Shown here piece by piece: positions 16,774 through 24,552 of a stretch of DNA of 30,866 nt. How positions within the stretch are numbered: the stretch's first letter is position 1; each line of letters starts with the position of its first letter. The DNA is from Candidatus Hadarchaeota archaeon (lineage in GTDB: Archaea > Hadarchaeota > Hadarchaeia > Hadarchaeales > Hadarchaeaceae): NCBI GenBank assembly GCA_040755315.1, contig JBFMBF010000014.1, positions 1 through 30,866 of the forward strand, given 5' to 3'. A program made the translations under genes and the position numbers. The notes under the pieces are model-generated. The model searched no databases. It was not told the origin of the DNA and worked only from the letters and a program-made list of their open reading frames with translations.

Positions 16774-18057
16774 TTATCTGTTCAGTCTTTTTATGTCGAT
16801 TTTGAGCGAGTGGACAGAACACGAGATGCACGGGTCATAGCTGCGGATGAGCATCCCGCTCAACTTGGCGAGCTCTTCATCCGGCGAGTCTATCCGGCCC
16901 TCCACAAGTACTTTGAGCATTTCTTCCATGTTTGCGAGGTTTTGCGCCGTTGGAGGGATTATCCTAGCCCGCTTTATCCTTCCGGAGGCATCAAGCTCGT
17001 ACTCATGGTAAAGCATGCCCCTCGGCGCCTCGGTTATCCATGTCCCCTTCGATGCTTTTGGTTCTACTGGAACTCTGCTCCTCAACGGTTCTTTATAATC
17101 TTCCAAGATTCCCACGGAATCTTCGATTGCATTTATAGTCTCAAGTATCCGCGCAATGTTTTGTGTGAAGACATTTCTTTCATCAACAGCATCGGCGTAC
17201 CTCTTGGGAACAGGACGCAGAGAGTCCAGGTTCAGCTTTAACCTTGACAGTGGCCCAACAAGGAACGTGCTTCGGCCCTTAACTCGGGCATGGTAAGCCG
17301 TGGAGTGAGGGACCTGGTATTCCTCAATGTTGTTGCAAAAATCCCCCTGCTTTATGTGGAGCCCCTTGTTAGACATGACATCTCCGGCGCTCATGGGGTA
17401 CTCCTCCGGATCCCACAGAGACGCCACTTCAACGTCGTGGTCAAGCTCTGGCATGGCCACCTTGTCCAGAACCCACTCTGTCACCATCTGCATGTTTTTC
17501 TCAACTTCTTTCAGCGGCTCAAGCATAGCTTTCAGCTTGCCGGCAGAAGGCAGGCCAGTGAAGCCGCCCACGCACGGGCTGATCGGATGCGTGGCCCTTC
17601 CCCCTATCAGCGCCATTATCTTGTCCCCCACGTTTTTTGTTTCAAGTCCGATTTTGACGATGTCCGGGTGTTCTTTCAAAAGCCCCAAAACATCATTTTT
17701 GCCGAAGAAGTCTGGAAGCGCGAGAAGGAAGAAATGGAGGGCGTGGCTCTGTATCCACTCCCCGCAGTATAACAACCTTCGGACTGTTTCTATATCCTCG
17801 TCAACCTCCACCCCGAAGGCATTTTCAATGGCTTTTGCGGAACTCATCTGGTATGCAACGGGGCATATTCCGCAGATTCTGGCAGTGATGTCCGTGACGT
17901 CCTTATAGCTCCTTCCAACAAGGAAGGCCTCGAAGAATCTTGGCGGCTCAAAGATGTTGACCTCTGTCTCAATCTTGTCGTCCCTTATCTCCACACGTAC
18001 TCTTCCCTCACCCTCAACCCTCGTTAGAGGGTTTACCCCAAAGACTCTGCCGCTCAA
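16774..18057 (-). CDS. hydA: Group 3b [NiFe]-hydrogenase large (alpha) subunit
   Basis: 'TRVEGEG', L1 RICGIC, 'EAPRG', L2 DPCISCSVH followed by an 11-aa cleavable extension. Confidence 0.95.
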   Translation of the reverse strand: MSGRVFGVNPLTRVEGEGRVRVEIRDDKIETEVNIFEPPRFFEAFLVGRSYKDVTDITARICGICPVAYQMSSAKAIENAFGVEVDEDIETVRRLLYCGEWIQSHALHFFLLALPDFFGKNDVLGLLKEHPDIVKIGLETKNVGDKIMALIGGRATHPISPCVGGFTGLPSAGKLKAMLEPLKEVEKNMQMVTEWVLDKVAMPELDHDVEVASLWDPEEYPMSAGDVMSNKGLHIKQGDFCNNIEEYQVPHSTAYHARVKGRSTFLVGPLSRLKLNLDSLRPVPKRYADAVDERNVFTQNIARILETINAIEDSVGILEDYKEPLRSRVPVEPKASKGTWITEAPRGMLYHEYELDASGRIKRARIIPPTAQNLANMEEMLKVLVEGRIDSPDEELAKLSGMLIRSYDPCISCSVHSLKIDIKRLNR

Positions 18058-18818
18058 ACATCCACCTCCCTGAACCTGCGTGAGAAGCCGGTGAACTCCC
18101 TGAACTTGTGCTGTATTTCATAATCTTCGAGGCCAATTTCCTTGAATTTGTTCTTCAATGAATCCGGGTTTATCTCCTCCATGGGACCAAAGCAGGAGTA
18201 GCAGTCCCGCCTATAGGAAGGACACAAGGCCCCACAACCTGCCACAGTCACCGGCCCCATGCACGGCAGCCCTTTTCCAACAAGGACGCAGATGTTGCCA
18301 AGCCGCTTGCATTGAATGCAAACGCTCTGCCTTTCTATCCTCGGCCGTTTTCCCGAAAAAAGTGAGGCCATCAAGTCGATCAGGTAAGTTTCATTTATCG
18401 GGCACCCCTGAATCTCGTAATCCAGCTTGACGTGTTCAGATATCGGAGTGGATTTTTCAAGCGACTCTATCCATTCAGGGCGTTTGTAAACGATGTCTGA
18501 GAACTCTTTCATGGAGCCCCAGTTCCTGAGGGACTGAATGCCGCCCGCCGTGGCGCAGGCCCCGATGGTGACCATCAACTTGGATTGTTCCCTTATCTGC
18601 TTCACCCTTTCAATGTGTTCAGGGACGGAGACCGAGCCCTCAACTAGAGCTAGGTCGTACGGCCCTGGCAGTTTTGTGTCGGTGGCCTCAGCAAAATATC
18701 GGATGTCCACATTTTCGGTAATGAACAGCGGCAACTGCTCCACAGCTCTGATTACAGCAAGCTGGCAGCCGTCGCACGAGGCAAACTTGAAGACCCCAAG
18801 CTTCAACTTCTCGGCCAC
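18054..18818 (-). CDS. hydD: Group 3b [NiFe]-hydrogenase small (delta) subunit
   Basis: 'SCDGCQL', 'VEGSVS', 'GACAT.GG', 'GCP', and distal-cluster Cys motifs. Confidence 0.93.
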   Translation of the reverse strand: MAEKLKLGVFKFASCDGCQLAVIRAVEQLPLFITENVDIRYFAEATDTKLPGPYDLALVEGSVSVPEHIERVKQIREQSKLMVTIGACATAGGIQSLRNWGSMKEFSDIVYKRPEWIESLEKSTPISEHVKLDYEIQGCPINETYLIDLMASLFSGKRPRIERQSVCIQCKRLGNICVLVGKGLPCMGPVTVAGCGALCPSYRRDCYSCFGPMEEINPDSLKNKFKEIGLEDYEIQHKFREFTGFSRRFREVDV

Positions 18819-18819
18819 T

Positions 18820-19650
18820 CTAAACCCCCTTTACCCCCAGCAGCCCGGCCAGCTGCTTGTACGTGAATACTGGACCGTCCTTGCAAACGAAGTACCCGCC
18901 GAACTGGCAGTGGCCGCACAGCCCTATGCCGCACCTCATCCGTCTTTCCATCGAAAGAAAAATCCTGTCCGCCGAGATGCCACGCTTGACCAGCTCCTGC
19001 GATACTATTTTCATCATTATCTCCGGGCCGCAGACAATGGCCACGGTGCTGTCGTGTTTTATCTCTATTTGATCGAGCAGGGTGGTGATGAGTCCGACGT
19101 TGCCCTTCCATTGCTCGTCGCCCCTGTCAACAGTCACGCGAACCTCTCCACCCAATTCGCACCACGTGTCGTACTCCTCGGGGAACATCAGGTCTGAGGG
19201 ACTCCTAGCGCCGCATAGCACCTTCACCGAACTGTATTTTTTCCTATTTTTCAGCATGTGGCGGATGGCGGGCCTCAAGGGGCAAAGGCCTATCCCACCG
19301 CCTATCACAATCACATCTTTACCTTCTGTTTTTTCTACTGGCCACCAACTACCGTAAGGCCCGCGCAGGCCAATTATGTCGCCTTCCTTCAGGGTTGAGA
19401 TAGCCTTGCTTATGTATCCCACAGACCTGACGGTGTGCCCAATTTGCTCTTCATCAGGGGAAGAGGAGATGGATATCGGAGCCTCGCCCACGCCATATAC
19501 ATAAAGCATGTTGAACTGCCCCGGCTTGAAGGAGTATTTTTTTCTCTCTTCGGGATTTACAAATTTTACAGAAATTGATATGGTGTCTTTTGTGTGTTGT
19601 ATTTTTTCGACAACTTCCACATTTTTCAGTTCCCAGCTGCTTGGATTCAA
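18820..19650 (-). CDS. hydG: Group 3b hydrogenase gamma subunit (FAD/NAD(P)-binding, 2Fe-2S)
   Basis: 'PGQFNML', 'RGPYG', 'GGGIG', 'CGP', 'RMRCGIGLCGHCQ…C.DGPVF'. Confidence 0.93.
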   Translation of the reverse strand: MNPSSWELKNVEVVEKIQHTKDTISISVKFVNPEERKKYSFKPGQFNMLYVYGVGEAPISISSSPDEEQIGHTVRSVGYISKAISTLKEGDIIGLRGPYGSWWPVEKTEGKDVIVIGGGIGLCPLRPAIRHMLKNRKKYSSVKVLCGARSPSDLMFPEEYDTWCELGGEVRVTVDRGDEQWKGNVGLITTLLDQIEIKHDSTVAIVCGPEIMMKIVSQELVKRGISADRIFLSMERRMRCGIGLCGHCQFGGYFVCKDGPVFTYKQLAGLLGVKGV

Positions 19651-20780
19651 GTCATGTCCCTCCTCAACAGTTTCTCGTTTTCAGTAATGTCAATTCCGAC
19701 CGGGCACCATGTTATGCACCTGCCGCAGCCAACGCACCCGTACACTCCATATTGGTCGACCCAGTAAACCAGCTTGTGCATCATCCACTGCCTGTACCTG
19801 TCGGTTATTGTCGGCCTGACGTTCCCTGTGGCTATTTCCCCGTGATCTATGCTGTAGCAGGAGTCCCACAACCTTCTCCTAACAACTTCATTCTCCTTCA
19901 AATCAATGATGTCAAGTACATCATTGCAGAAGCAGGTGGGGCAAACCATCGTGCAGTTACCGCAACTTAAGCAGGTCTCGGCCGCCTTTGACCAGAGTGG
20001 GCTCGCGATCCTCTTGTAAAGGTCCTCTCTGAGTGTGGTCGTGTCTATGTACTTCACCATTTTCTCAGCAGTTTCGTCTACCAGCCTGTTGGCGCGGTTT
20101 ATTTCGTCCAACGTGGCAGGCCTCATTTCAACGTTTTTCATCGCTTCTGCTCCTTTGTTGCTCCCGACCCTTACAAGGAAGCAGTCTTCCAGCTCGGTTA
20201 GCGCAATATCGTAACCGTTTTTGATTTGTGGTCCAGCGCCCATGGAAGCGCAGAAGCAGTGCTCCCCCGCTCTCGTGCAGGTGACCGCCAACATGAAAAT
20301 TTCTTTTCTTATGGCGAGGTACGAGTCGTCGGGGAACTCCCCCCCCGCGAAAATCTTGTCAAGAACTTTCAAAGCCGTGAGGTCACAAGCCCTTAACCCC
20401 ACGAAAGCCTGCTTTTTCGGATCAATTTTCAGAGGGCGGCAAATGAGCCGGTTGTCTTTTCTGCTAACTTTCATCAAATCAATCTCCGGCAAGAAAAGGA
20501 ACCTTTTGATTGAATTTTGACCATTGACATAAGCAAAATAAGAATTCCCCTCCTTTTTGGTTTTGTACCACCCCGGCCCTTGGACGTCAATGTACCCGAT
20601 GGGTAGGTCTTTTGTTGAATTTATTTCTGCCAGCAGCATTTGCCCGTCTTTCAAAGTTGGGCCAATCAGGGAATATCCAGAAGACTTCAAATTATTGAGA
20701 ATGGTGTCCAGACCTTCCTTAGGTATTGCATAGATTTGCCATCCTCGTGCTTCAGCATCAATGTGTGGGACGTATTTCAT
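19647..20780 (-). CDS. hydB: Group 3b hydrogenase beta subunit (4Fe-4S dicluster)
   Basis: 'CLSCGNCTMVCPTCFC', 'R.RQW..HK', 'GCVGCGRCITWCP'. Confidence 0.93.
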   Translation of the reverse strand: MKYVPHIDAEARGWQIYAIPKEGLDTILNNLKSSGYSLIGPTLKDGQMLLAEINSTKDLPIGYIDVQGPGWYKTKKEGNSYFAYVNGQNSIKRFLFLPEIDLMKVSRKDNRLICRPLKIDPKKQAFVGLRACDLTALKVLDKIFAGGEFPDDSYLAIRKEIFMLAVTCTRAGEHCFCASMGAGPQIKNGYDIALTELEDCFLVRVGSNKGAEAMKNVEMRPATLDEINRANRLVDETAEKMVKYIDTTTLREDLYKRIASPLWSKAAETCLSCGNCTMVCPTCFCNDVLDIIDLKENEVVRRRLWDSCYSIDHGEIATGNVRPTITDRYRQWMMHKLVYWVDQYGVYGCVGCGRCITWCPVGIDITENEKLLRRDMT

Positions 20781-21147: not shown

Positions 21148-22002
21148 TCAGGCCGAGCCACGTTTTATTCGACTTTTCAGCTTTGCAAGCTCTCCCTTCG
21201 ACATCTCGTAGCTTTGCTCAAGCGTCGGGAACTTTCCATCCTTAACCTCTCGTTTGAATTTTGTCAGCGCCCGCGATACTGCCCCGTCAAGTTTTGCATA
21301 GCGCTTCACAAACTTTGGCAGAGTTGCTCCAGTCAGGCCAACCAGATCGTGGAAGACAAGAACTTGGCCGTCGCAGTATGGGCCAGCGCCAATCCCGATG
21401 GTTGGAATTTTTAGTCTTTCCGTTATGAGCTTAGCCAGCTGCCACGGTACGCACTCCAGCACCAGGCTGAAAACGCCCGCCTCCTCAAGCTTTTTCGCAT
21501 CTTCAACAATAGTCTGCGCCGCTTTCACGGTTTTCCCGCTCACCTTGTATCCTCCCAGCTGGTGGATCCATTGAGGAGTGAGCCCCAAATGTCCCATCAC
21601 AGGAACTCCCGAGTCGATCATGGCTTCTATCTTCGCCGTTACCCCTCGCCCGCCTTCGACTTTCACGGCCCGGGCGTGTCCCTCTTTCAAAAAGCGCCCC
21701 GAGTTCCGAATCGCATCTTCTGCCGCCGCTTGATATGACATGAACGGCATGTCTCCGACCACAAGCGCCCGCTTCGACGCTTTTGCAACAGCTTTTGTGT
21801 GGTGAATCATCTCATCCATTGTTACGGAAAGGGTGTCTTGGTGTCCGAGCACAACGCTCGCCAGCGAGTCGCCCACCAGCAGCACATCCACCCCAGCTTC
21901 ATCCGCAAGCCGAGCCGTGAGGTAGTCATAAGCGGCCAACATGACAATGCGCTCGCCTCGGCCCTTCATCTCGCGGAGGGAGGCAGTCGTTACTCTTTCC
22001 AT
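21148..22002 (-). CDS. panB: 3-methyl-2-oxobutanoate hydroxymethyltransferase
   Basis: 'AYD', 'LLVGDSL', 'DMPFMSY', 'VKVEGG', 'HLGLTPQ', 'VLECVP', 'IGIGAG…DGQVLV.HD'. Confidence 0.97.
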   Translation of the reverse strand: MERVTTASLREMKGRGERIVMLAAYDYLTARLADEAGVDVLLVGDSLASVVLGHQDTLSVTMDEMIHHTKAVAKASKRALVVGDMPFMSYQAAAEDAIRNSGRFLKEGHARAVKVEGGRGVTAKIEAMIDSGVPVMGHLGLTPQWIHQLGGYKVSGKTVKAAQTIVEDAKKLEEAGVFSLVLECVPWQLAKLITERLKIPTIGIGAGPYCDGQVLVFHDLVGLTGATLPKFVKRYAKLDGAVSRALTKFKREVKDGKFPTLEQSYEMSKGELAKLKSRIKRGSA

Positions 22003-22086
22003 TCAACCATTCATACCTGAAACCTGGCAAAATAAAGCTGTTGAAAGTGTTTTTAGCCGGGCGGGGAGAGTTACCCTTGTGGTTGA

Positions 22087-24552
22087 GTGGTCGGAGGTTA
22101 CATGGGGCAGCTGCTCCGCGTCGACCTGTCGCGGGGGAAAACAATCGCGCAGCCGATTGACCTGACTATTGCTTATAACTTCCTGGGTGGCAGGGGCTAC
22201 TCGGCAAAGCTACTTCATGATGAGCTGAAGCCGGGTATTGACCCGCTTTCTCCAGGGAACAAGCTGGTTTTCATGACGGGGCCACTCACTGGAACGACCT
22301 TCCCCGGCGCAGGCAGGACCGCGGTAAGCGCGAAGTCGCCCCTGACTGGTACTGTGGCGGACTCCCTGATGGGCGGCGCCTTTGGCACGTTTCTAAAGAG
22401 AGCTGGTTTTGACGGGATAGTTGTGGAAGGAAAATCCGAAGTCCCAGTCTATCTTCATGTAGACGACGGCATGGTGGCAATTCACAGCGCAGCGGATCTG
22501 TGGGGAAAGAGCACCATCCAGACAAGAAAAGACCTTGAGGAAAGGCACAGAGGTGCATGGGTTGCGGCAATTGGCCCGGCCGGAGAGAACCTCTCAAGCA
22601 TCGCGTGCATCTACACGGGCGCGAAAGCGGGGAGGGAAGGCATGGCTGGCAGGTGCGGTCTCGGCGCCGTCATGGGTTCGAAAGGGCTGAAGGCGATAGT
22701 CGTGAATGGCAGCAAAAAGCTAGATGTGGTTCACGAGAATGCCTACAGAAAAATCATCGAAAAAATCAGGCGCACCGTGGAGACGCACCCCATAACAGGA
22801 ATGGACGGGAGCTTGGGCCGATTCGGGACCTCTCTTTTGGTGCACAGGATAACGGCAGCGGGGATGCTGCCGGTAGATAACTTTTCAGGCAGGAGGATCA
22901 CATTCGAGGAGGCCGACAGGTTCTGCGGCGAAACAGTAAAAGAAAAGTACCTTGTTAGAAAAACAGCCTGCTTTGCGTGCCCGACCGCCTGCGGGAGGTG
23001 GGTGAGGGTCGGCGATTGGGAGGGGAAGGGGCCTGAATTTGAAAACACCATCATGCTGGGGCCGAACTCTGGGTTCCTTGATTATGAGAAGGAGATAGTC
23101 CCGCTAAACAGGATGTGTGATGAACTCGGGATAGACGCAATTTCAGCTGGCGTGATTCTGGGCTTTGCGAGGGAAATCGGGAAGGTCAATGGCTTGGAGG
23201 ACGCGGAGACTCTGTTGAAGGATATTGCAGGAGGCAAGTCGGAGTTTTCGAAGGGACTGGCGGCGGCAGCCGGAAAAATAAAGAGCAAGGCGTTGGCGCC
23301 GCACGTGAAAGGACTGGAGCTACCAGCCTACGACCCTCGGGGAGCAAAAGGGATTGCCTTGGCGTATGCAACCTCAAACAGGGGGGGCTGCCATCTCAGA
23401 GCCTACACCATCGCCCCGGAGATCGTCAGCAACCCGGAGTTTGTTGACCCCAACTCGGAAGATGGCAAGGCAAGGCTTGTCGTCAAGATGCAGGACGCGT
23501 TCGCAATTTATGATTCCATGGTTGGATGCAAGTACCACGGTCTTGCCCTTTTCACGACATTGGACTACGAGCTGGACGACATCGCGAAGCTCCTGACCGC
23601 CGTGACCGGCCTGGAGTGGACCAGCAAGTCGCTGCACGAGGTCGGGTCTAGAATAAACAATGTTGAGAGGATGTTTAACTTACGAGAAGGATTCAGCTCG
23701 GTCGACGACAGGCTGCCAGTCCAATTTGGGATAGACCTCTCGAGGATGTTGCGCGATTATTACTCGGAAAGGAAGTGGGGGGCAAAGGGTGCGCCGAAAG
23801 CCCGGCCGCTTCTCAAAAAGCCGAAGAAAGCTGAGGCGGTGGAAGTCGTTGGTGACCCGTTTGATCGTTTGAACTTCCCTGAGCTCCAAGTCGCGCTTGA
23901 CATGGATGCCGAAATCCCAACGATAGCATCTGTGGCGAAGCAGGTCTACGAGGGAGGTTCCAGAATAGTTGAGGCCGGAACGCCATCTGTGAAGAGGCAC
24001 GGCGTGGACGCCCTCATCCCCGCGCTGAGAAAAGCCGCACCGGACGCACTGCTGGTGGCGGATCTTAAGACGATGGATGTCGGGAACCTGGAGGCGAGGA
24101 TAGCCTTCAGGGCCGGGGCGGACGTCGCGGCGGTCCTTGCAATAGGCGGGAGGACAAAGGTCATCGAGGCCGTGAGCGAGGCGGAGCGATGGGACAAGGC
24201 AGTATTAATAGACCTGATAGACTGCCCGGACCCACTCGAGATGATTGAAAGCCTTGTCCGCCACCTGAAGGGGCAGGAGGGCCGCGTCATCCTATGCCTC
24301 CACAGAGGGATAAGCGAGCAGCTGAAGGGCAGGGGAATTTACGAGCAGACCGCACTCATATCCGAAGCCAAAAAGCGGGCCGGAAGGTTCACTCTTGCTG
24401 TTGCTGGTGGTTTGAAGGAAGGGGTGGTGAAGGACGTGGTGAAGGCCGGGGCCGACATATGCATCGCCGGCAGCGCGGTATACAACTCCACGAACCCGAA
24501 GGAAACGGCGAGAAGGATACTCCAAGAGATGAGGGAAGCTCGCGCTGCATGA
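22087..24552 (+). CDS. Aldehyde:ferredoxin oxidoreductase (W/Mo-pterin) fused to a C-terminal 3-hexulose-6-phosphate synthase domain
   Basis: Residues 1 to about 570 carry AOR motifs (LGGRG, KSPLTG, IGPAGE, GLGAVMGSK, CFACPTAC, GPEFE, CDELGID, YDPRG, NRGGCHL, DDRLP). Residues about 596-821 carry HPS motifs (LQVALD, EAGTP, ADLKTMD.GNLEAR, LHRG, VAGG). One uninterrupted frame. Confidence 0.92.
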   Translation: MVGGYMGQLLRVDLSRGKTIAQPIDLTIAYNFLGGRGYSAKLLHDELKPGIDPLSPGNKLVFMTGPLTGTTFPGAGRTAVSAKSPLTGTVADSLMGGAFGTFLKRAGFDGIVVEGKSEVPVYLHVDDGMVAIHSAADLWGKSTIQTRKDLEERHRGAWVAAIGPAGENLSSIACIYTGAKAGREGMAGRCGLGAVMGSKGLKAIVVNGSKKLDVVHENAYRKIIEKIRRTVETHPITGMDGSLGRFGTSLLVHRITAAGMLPVDNFSGRRITFEEADRFCGETVKEKYLVRKTACFACPTACGRWVRVGDWEGKGPEFENTIMLGPNSGFLDYEKEIVPLNRMCDELGIDAISAGVILGFAREIGKVNGLEDAETLLKDIAGGKSEFSKGLAAAAGKIKSKALAPHVKGLELPAYDPRGAKGIALAYATSNRGGCHLRAYTIAPEIVSNPEFVDPNSEDGKARLVVKMQDAFAIYDSMVGCKYHGLALFTTLDYELDDIAKLLTAVTGLEWTSKSLHEVGSRINNVERMFNLREGFSSVDDRLPVQFGIDLSRMLRDYYSERKWGAKGAPKARPLLKKPKKAEAVEVVGDPFDRLNFPELQVALDMDAEIPTIASVAKQVYEGGSRIVEAGTPSVKRHGVDALIPALRKAAPDALLVADLKTMDVGNLEARIAFRAGADVAAVLAIGGRTKVIEAVSEAERWDKAVLIDLIDCPDPLEMIESLVRHLKGQEGRVILCLHRGISEQLKGRGIYEQTALISEAKKRAGRFTLAVAGGLKEGVVKDVVKAGADICIAGSAVYNSTNPKETARRILQEMREARAA

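Follow-up and report, generated by a model that had tools for sequence, protein, structure and literature searches.

An archaeal fusion of an aldehyde oxidoreductase with a hexulose-6-phosphate synthase is a candidate methanopterin-free formaldehyde sink of the reverse ribulose monophosphate pathway

Hexulose-6-phosphate synthase (HPS) has been described in the fusion proteins Fae-Hps, HPS-PHI and HPS-MenG (PMC5241800, PMC11291895; here and below, statements attributed to published work refer to excerpts of the cited papers), and the partner domain in Fae-Hps has been proposed to capture the formaldehyde of the reverse ribulose monophosphate (RuMP) pathway (PMC5241800). Oxidation of formaldehyde by a separate aldehyde oxidoreductase (AOR) has also been suggested before for archaea that have HPS and PHI (PMC8065059, PMC11291895), and the excerpted parts of a review of the AOR/WOR enzymes name no fused member (PMC12096430). 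Here, we analysed a stretch of 30,866 nucleotides of a Candidatus Hadarchaeota archaeon (contig JBFMBF010000014.1; referred to as the window), in which a single gene joins an AOR to an HPS. According to a first-pass annotation of the gene, this architecture is not known to have been characterised, and searches of the open literature found neither the fusion nor the link between hps and panB presented below, while subscription papers and supplementary WOR clade lists may mention it; the excerpts of PMC12318220, PMC4814558, PMC10321748 and PMC13473441 mention neither of the two. The fusion is apparently undescribed so far.

The fusion gene is located in a host genome (G000) that is 86.6% complete. 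The gene and its parts are as follows:

22087..24552, + strand: AOR-HPS fusion gene, 821 aa, GTG start (single open frame, Pfam domains, homologues)
22108..22710, + strand: AFOR_N domain (aa 8-208) with invariant R77 and R189 (Pfam PF02730, E 1.9e-75)
22750..23805, + strand: AFOR_C domains 2-3 (aa 222-573; PF01314, E 2.3e-91; alignment to 1AOR and 8C0Z)
23797..23877, + strand: inter-domain linker (aa 571-597), kept in length and partly in sequence (pLDDT 77-94 per 10-residue block)
23878..24540, + strand: HPS TIM barrel (aa 598-818) with D605, E629, T632, D659, K661, D664, D709, H739, I742 and A773 (profile matches, alignments)

As the first-pass annotation had stated, the frame is open throughout, the AOR motifs are in place (C295/C298/C302, C481, GPEFE at 315-319 and GGCHL at 433-437), and a complete HPS barrel, containing the strings quoted from it at the time, follows the linker from about nt 23870. 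Pfam assigns aa 598-811 to the OMPdecase/HUMPS domain (E 1.5e-24), and all three Pfam domains score above their cut-offs. The linker, which had been described as basic, is found at the expected position (aa 572-583), but its basic character is not conserved among relatives; by contrast, its length (25-27 aa in 59/60 full-length close relatives) is conserved, and so is an L-R-x-P consensus.

In a homologue search with the junction-spanning residues 440-821 as the query, 159 proteins were found among 8000 scored candidates, and 85 of the best 120 listed (including that of the window) have both domains, with 78 being full length. Their source names include Hadarchaeales, Bathyarchaeia, Hecatellales, Hodarchaeota, Hydrothermarchaeota, Thermoplasmata, Thermoprotei and Aenigmarchaeota. 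Moreover, when 1.84 billion representatives were searched with a profile, the top three matches were full-length fusions; five of the best 150 cover both domains and the others cover the AOR part only. Because both domains are present in so many listed homologues and independent assemblies likewise show an uninterrupted frame across the junction, mis-assembly and read-through are ruled out, and the doubts raised initially, i.e. that the junction might be a mis-join or that the fusion might occur in no related genome, do not hold. In total, we conclude that the fusion is confirmed as real and conserved, and as a bifunctional enzyme by domain content.

The C-terminal half is confirmed, at the level of sequence, as a hexulose-6-phosphate synthase in which the catalytic residues are retained. 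The NCBIfam models that match it best are HPS models with the Fae-Hps model NF009833 first (151 bits), while KGPDC and PyrF score 57 and 45 bits, respectively; similarly, among solved sequences, HPS enzymes come closest (E 6e-29, 3e-28 and 3e-23), followed by OMP decarboxylase (8e-13) and KGPDC (1e-7). These scores and alignments rule out a PyrF or KGPDC identity. All of the 62 close, 14 unfused and 18 distant sequences compared share D605, E629, T632, K636, D659, K661, D664, D709, H739 and A773, and E629, T632, D659, K661, D664 and H739 are equivalent to what we take to be the HPS catalytic set (Glu33, Thr36, Asp62-x-Lys64-x-x-Asp67 and His136). D709, I742 and A773 are HPS-type residues that align with positions 112, 139 and 169 of 1XBX, i.e. 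the positions of the KGPDC triple mutant E112D/R139V/T169A, which reportedly gains HPS activity. The first-pass annotation had considered that the motif HRGIS could mark an inactive HPS domain; however, S743 of this motif aligns with KGPDC position 140, outside the triple-mutant set, and is present in 59/61 close relatives. HRGIS is therefore the norm of the family and, with all catalytic residues retained, inactivity on this ground was set aside. The TIGR03128 score is 138.7 with a cut-off of 200; a Fae-Hps control passing NF009833 reaches only 153.6, and distant fusions reach 199.6, 213.5 and 273.7. The resemblance to the Hps half of Fae-Hps, noticed previously, is borne out by the top rank of NF009833 and by an HPS tree in which the window's group joins the Hadarchaeota Fae-Hps domains, apart from canonical HPS (support 100/99).

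The N-terminal half is a member of the AOR/WOR family, with AFOR_N and AFOR_C above cut-off and an AOR fold (Foldseek rmsd of 1.9-2.2 Å to 9MQX, 9G7J and 1AOR). In all 76 aligned fusions, the four 4Fe-4S ligands C295, C298, C302 and C481 are invariant, as are the second-shell residues T248, E319, Y415 and H436 (1AOR alignment); in Pyrococcus furiosus AOR, the second shell consists of Thr243, Glu313, Tyr427 and His448 (PMC12096430). P. furiosus Tyr312 is replaced by Phe318 in the window protein, and close relatives have Tyr (66%) or Phe (34%) at this position. This half is nearer to AOR sensu stricto than to FOR: in a score comparison, the three solved AORs 9MQX, 1AOR and 9G7J score 382, 380 and 362 bits, and FOR (1B25) scores 274 bits, which speaks against a place in the FOR clade. 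The span from C481 to G508 comprises 28 residues in 83/83 fused AOR halves but in only 4/144 unfused AORs (mode 22). The corresponding insertion of ~6 residues is located right after the C481 region and is absent from all four other AORs of G000. Because this span sets the fused halves apart from nearly all unfused AORs, the fused AORs form a distinct, dedicated subfamily.

Two HPS types were distinguished among the 78 full-length fusions, i.e. the window's group (60 proteins) and a distant group (16 proteins, plus two of ~990 aa that have an additional partial barrel); the HPS of the distant group mostly has the canonical HxGID. Free HPS trees hint at two independent fusion events; however, a single origin could be rejected neither for HPS (p-AU 0.14 with 40 chosen rows) nor for AOR (p-AU 0.51 with 35 chosen rows), and the insertion common to the fused halves speaks for one AOR lineage. 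Therefore, we do not claim convergence. Among variant architectures, P0070, P0083 and P0243 (~990 aa; cluster members named Aenigmarchaeota and Nanohaloarchaeota) combine an AOR and a full HPS with a partial HPS-like barrel. P0082 and P0088 (~610 aa) have an HPS domain that is sister to the window's group, preceded by a 380-aa domain with an AOR-like fold and without a Pfam match; this type is a degenerate form of the fusion. In public annotations, the fusion proteins are named after a single half (AOR, OMP decarboxylase or KGPDC).

The AlphaFold2 model of the whole chain, based on 61 close relatives, has a pLDDT of 92.3 and a pTM of 0.85, linker included, and no solved chain was found to cover the AOR and HPS parts together (the best TM values by query are 0.66 and 0.25). 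When the halves were supplied as separate chains with a custom paired alignment, the docking score was 0.65, while the best of three controls scored 0.00; the docking mark is reached by 116/157 solved complexes and by 2/215 mismatched pairs. The docking runs share at least 96% of contacts, with a partner pLDDT of at least 92. On the HPS side, the predicted contacts (606-615, 743-749, 777-780 and 796-807) are in the loops after strands 1, 6, 7 and 8, which make up the catalytic face. The named AOR contacts do not include the loops that follow strands 2-4, by which HPS dimers are formed. On the AOR side, the contacts (235-260, 272-282, 418-420 and 445-456) flank T248, Y415, H436 and Y440 and exclude the Cys loop 295-302, and we infer that these segments surround the entrance to the substrate channel. 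Contact positions are conserved at 0.80 compared to 0.71 for all positions. In total, the models support binding of the HPS catalytic face to the AOR half. The model of a distant-group member (16 sequences) has a pLDDT of 79.9 and a pTM of 0.80, with low confidence in the AOR contact segments.

The fusion is the sole HPS-like gene in G000. As the first-pass annotation had suggested checking, this genome has a PHI gene (G000:C16:16006-16566; 193 bits, cut-off 160) while a second hps, Fae (PF08714) and Mch were not found; transketolase and a FolD above cut-off were not found either. G000 also has RpiA, a transaldolase-family gene, FBP aldolase/phosphatase, SHMT, a pterin-binding enzyme, two copies of moeA and four AORs besides the fusion. 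At a contig end, G000:C1:100567-100896 is a partial formyltransferase in this genome without a FolD or Fhs match.

We determined the co-occurrence of these genes in 66 genomes of the Hadarchaeota phylum, 26 of which are of high quality. The fusion is present in 23 genomes, in 21 of them with both domains in one frame (two cut by the contig start); in G003, the AOR half runs off the contig, and in G006 (L058:4086-6574), a frameshift within the HPS domain reflects an assembly error or a pseudogene. PHI is present in 20/23 fusion genomes. Mch is present in 0/23 fusion genomes and 17/43 others (Fisher 0.0002; 0/8 and 10/18 in the high-quality subset), and canonical stand-alone HPS in 0/23 and 11/43, respectively. 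Within genus g14, the fusion and Fae-Hps together with Mch are alternatives: G048 and G049 carry the fusion and neither Fae nor Mch, while G050-G054 have Fae-Hps and Mch without the fusion. Short-type transketolase is present in 3/39 HPS-bearing but 19/27 other genomes, a near-exclusion that is expected if HPS makes pentoses; this count omits seven genomes with only a weaker match in a frame of 550-710 aa, five of which are fusion genomes, so that any transketolase match is found in 7/23 fusion genomes (short-type in two, longer and weaker in five). As separate observations, G017, G019, G021, G023 and G001 have PHI and no convincing HPS match, and AOR is near PHI in some genomes. In G009 and G010 (L190:3624-6720 and L191:5587-8684), which have a stand-alone HPS, two tandem PHI-like SIS genes adjoin genes for an AOR and a DapA-like aldolase; phosphoglucomutase and another AOR are encoded in the vicinity.

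Altogether, the fusion is probably a bifunctional reverse-RuMP enzyme that serves as a methanopterin-free formaldehyde sink and yields formate and reduced ferredoxin. PHI, encoded elsewhere, would isomerise fructose-6-phosphate to hexulose-6-phosphate, and the HPS domain would split the latter into formaldehyde and ribulose-5-phosphate. Predicted to sit on the catalytic face of HPS, the AOR domain would then convert formaldehyde into formate at a tungsten-type pterin centre, with electrons passing via the 4Fe-4S cluster to ferredoxin. In this way, removal of the toxin would pull the unfavourable cleavage forward without methanopterin. We infer the direction of flux, formaldehyde as the substrate, tungsten as the metal, ferredoxin as the acceptor and the export of formate. 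The HPS equilibrium favours condensation and, therefore, a tight sink would be needed; a docked site would compensate for the weak binding of formaldehyde by free AORs. Based on the models, direct hand-over of formaldehyde between the two sites is plausible, at slightly less than an even chance. The proposal of the first-pass annotation that AOR takes the place of Fae as the sink is supported by the sole HPS, the presence of PHI and the absence of Fae and Mch matches in G000, together with the distribution of Mch and the alternatives in g14.

Several observations weigh against this interpretation. The 66 genomes are kin and incomplete and, therefore, the Fisher values overstate the associations; moreover, the difference for Fae (1/23 fusion genomes and 6/43 others) is not significant (p 0.41). 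The fusion is not required, since ten HPS-bearing genomes lack both the fusion and Fae, and G043 (95% complete) has no AOR match at E 1e-60; conversely, G058 has both the fusion and Fae-Hps (C23, C26), without an Mch match. A comparison with 14 unfused close relatives shows no relaxation of the HPS contact positions (0.80 vs 0.82, p 0.38); N800 and S796 do change in unfused relatives, these being positions picked after the fact. The relatives of ~610 aa carry HPS on a highly diverged AOR-like domain, suggesting that the partner domain may not need activity. In G000, at its 86.6% completeness, neither a WtpA match nor a formate consumer or exporter (PF00384 oxidoreductase, Fhs, PurP, PurT or FNT channel) was found. 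Among fusion genomes, Fhs is present in 2/23 and PF06973 in 3/23; thus, feeding of formate into purine synthesis is not general, and export is the default guess for its fate.

The G043 HPS (L054:6681-7406) is of the fusion type, has no AOR and adjoins panB, in a genome without a Fae or Mch match.

The AOR half could instead act on another aldehyde (amino-acid-derived, glycolaldehyde or phosphorylated) or be a lid or regulator of HPS, with the fusion serving co-expression or control. The higher scores with broad-range AORs than with FOR fit this possibility, as do the existence of versions with a degenerate AOR and the composition of the pocket. The aromatic residues Tyr468, Phe511 and Phe514, which hold the substrate in AOR-Aa (PMC10413684), align with Y440, Y483 and L486, the insertion being located past the positions aligned to Phe511 and Phe514, and the basic or polar residues H253, R254, K482 and H484 near the pocket are specific to the fusion family. 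However, the four other AORs of G000 are available for general aldehydes, and this reading would lead one to expect neither the exclusion of Mch nor a docking that, as predicted, involves the catalytic face of HPS. We consider this explanation unlikely, although it is the one that survives best beside a formaldehyde sink.

In addition to what the first-pass annotation had described, the fusion is linked to panB, which is located upstream in head-to-head orientation:

21148..22002, - strand: panB, ketopantoate hydroxymethyltransferase, head-to-head with the fusion (TIGR00222, 338 bits, above cut-off)
22003..22086, no strand: 84-bp divergent intergenic region common to panB and the fusion (sequence)

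A/T-rich boxes ~30 bp before each start are possible archaeal TATA boxes; a scan with sigma-70 promoter and terminator models, which are unsuited to archaea, gave nothing above chance. In other genomes, the spacing between panB and the fusion is 47-222 bp. panB adjoins the fusion in 15/23 genomes and is 3.7 kb away in one; the contig ends in three, and the two genes are not adjacent in four. Considering all 39 HPS-bearing genomes, the HPS gene adjoins panB in 30, in four architectures; by type, adjacency is found for canonical stand-alone HPS (11/11), fusion-type stand-alone HPS (3/4) and Fae-Hps (1/7). The phosphopantothenate synthetase gene (pps) often ends the panB-HPS cluster. As a tentative lead, so far in Hadarchaeota only, the panB link could reflect a minor branch in which some formaldehyde goes to pantoate.

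A stronger version, in which supply of C1 units for coenzyme A is the main purpose, PanB takes the HPS formaldehyde directly or once it has condensed spontaneously with a folate-type carrier, and AOR is an overflow valve, is improbable. The frequent adjacency across four architectures speaks for it, as do four genomes that hold a stand-alone HPS between pps and panB despite having Fae-Hps elsewhere. Moreover, the one stand-alone HPS tested matches the HPS-RraA model best (280 bits, compared to 225 bits for TIGR03128), and some PanB enzymes condense free formaldehyde (PMC7073904, citing Sugantino 2003). On the other hand, panB is present in 58/66 genomes, including ones without HPS, and directly beside pps in two HPS-less genomes examined, so that the slot may be inherited gene order. 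Methylene-folate may be available, given SHMT in 63/66 genomes and the pterin-binding enzyme in G000, and panB was not found in the 15/21 flanking open reading frames scanned at six distant-group loci (of 80). Finally, the demand for coenzyme A is far below that for pentoses.

Other genes near panB were recorded. In G052 (L192:2910-4935), panB adjoins mch with a FolE2-type GTP cyclohydrolase nearby and no HPS beside it, a hint that this PanB may receive its C1 unit from methanopterin. Directly downstream of panB in the window, a four-gene group (16774-20780, - strand) resembles a 3b-type [NiFe] hydrogenase (sulfhydrogenase beta, gamma, delta and alpha), with all four genes under the NCBIfam cut-offs; known from this locus, it is a possible electron outlet. 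A glutamate dehydrogenase gene (window:24571-25794, + strand) begins 18 bp past the fusion and is also downstream in the closest relative scanned only. It is followed by a flavodoxin gene (window:25813-26298, - strand), and flavodoxin genes are also near panB in two HPS-less loci.

The reverse direction, raised in the first-pass annotation, in which AOR would reduce formate with low-potential ferredoxin and HPS would fix the formaldehyde into hexulose-6-phosphate, would be served equally by the predicted docking, by the HPS equilibrium and by the ability of AORs to reduce free acids (PMC12096430), but is the least credible reading and most improbable, since it needs regeneration of ribulose-5-phosphate while a transketolase match is lacking in G000 and in 16/23 fusion genomes, no formate dehydrogenase-type enzyme was found in G000, acid reduction needs approximately -560 mV (PMC10413684), and use of the sole HPS in this direction would cost the cell its apparent pentose source.

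Returning to the formaldehyde sink, a wider formulation is doubtful but worth stating: in an old, widespread family, a tungsten oxidoreductase, with formaldehyde as its true substrate, might cap the HPS active site and receive unhydrated formaldehyde through a closed passage, so that pentose synthesis would also generate reduced ferredoxin, with a small leak to PanB for folate-free coenzyme A synthesis. If the sink is real, it would answer what happens to formaldehyde in archaea that run reverse RuMP without Fae and methanopterin. One consequence of the single-half labels in databases is that the HPS of Hadarchaeota, Bathyarchaeia and Asgard archaea may be overlooked in metabolic reconstructions. 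Reduction of formate to formaldehyde is a bottleneck in synthetic formatotrophy, for which a natural AOR-HPS channel would be of interest; the same scaffold, reversed, would be a cofactor-free module from formate to sugar phosphate. The HPS-panB link, in turn, raises the possibility of a route into coenzyme A that does without folate. Finally, an AOR-family tungstoenzyme would gain a defined role in formaldehyde metabolism, in a family in which the function of FOR has been called unknown (PMC12318220).

Among known systems, HPS-PHI (NF041755, PDB 9LJ9) and HPS-RraA/MenG (NF005442) similarly join an HPS barrel to a second domain. However, in these proteins HPS is the N-terminal half and is followed by an isomerase or RraA-like domain, whereas the window protein ends after the barrel, with no SIS or RraA domain following HPS, and misses both cut-offs (142 of 500 and 133 of 593). 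P. furiosus FOR (1B25), which oxidises C1-C4 aldehydes and the natural substrate of which may be glutaric semialdehyde (PMC12096430), belongs to the same family as the AOR half but is a stand-alone enzyme and more distant than AOR proper (274 vs 380 bits). AOR sensu stricto (1AOR; Clostridium autoethanogenum 9G7J; WorL 9MQX) shares the fold (TM by target 0.88-0.89, 37-38% identity), the four Cys residues and the Thr/Glu/Tyr/His second shell; by contrast, the window protein has the C-terminal HPS domain and the insertion after C481, and Glu332 of the dimer iron site in P. furiosus AOR aligns with P339. Fae-Hps of methanogens (NF009833, e.g. Mhun1628) has, like the window protein, an N-terminal partner and an HPS of the HR-G-I type. 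The window protein has no Fae domain and scores 151 bits with a cut-off of 274; its partner is a predicted W/Fe-S oxidoreductase that would have no need for methanopterin and would lose carbon as formate while gaining reduced ferredoxin. We conclude that the fusion probably works like Fae-Hps yet is outside that family.

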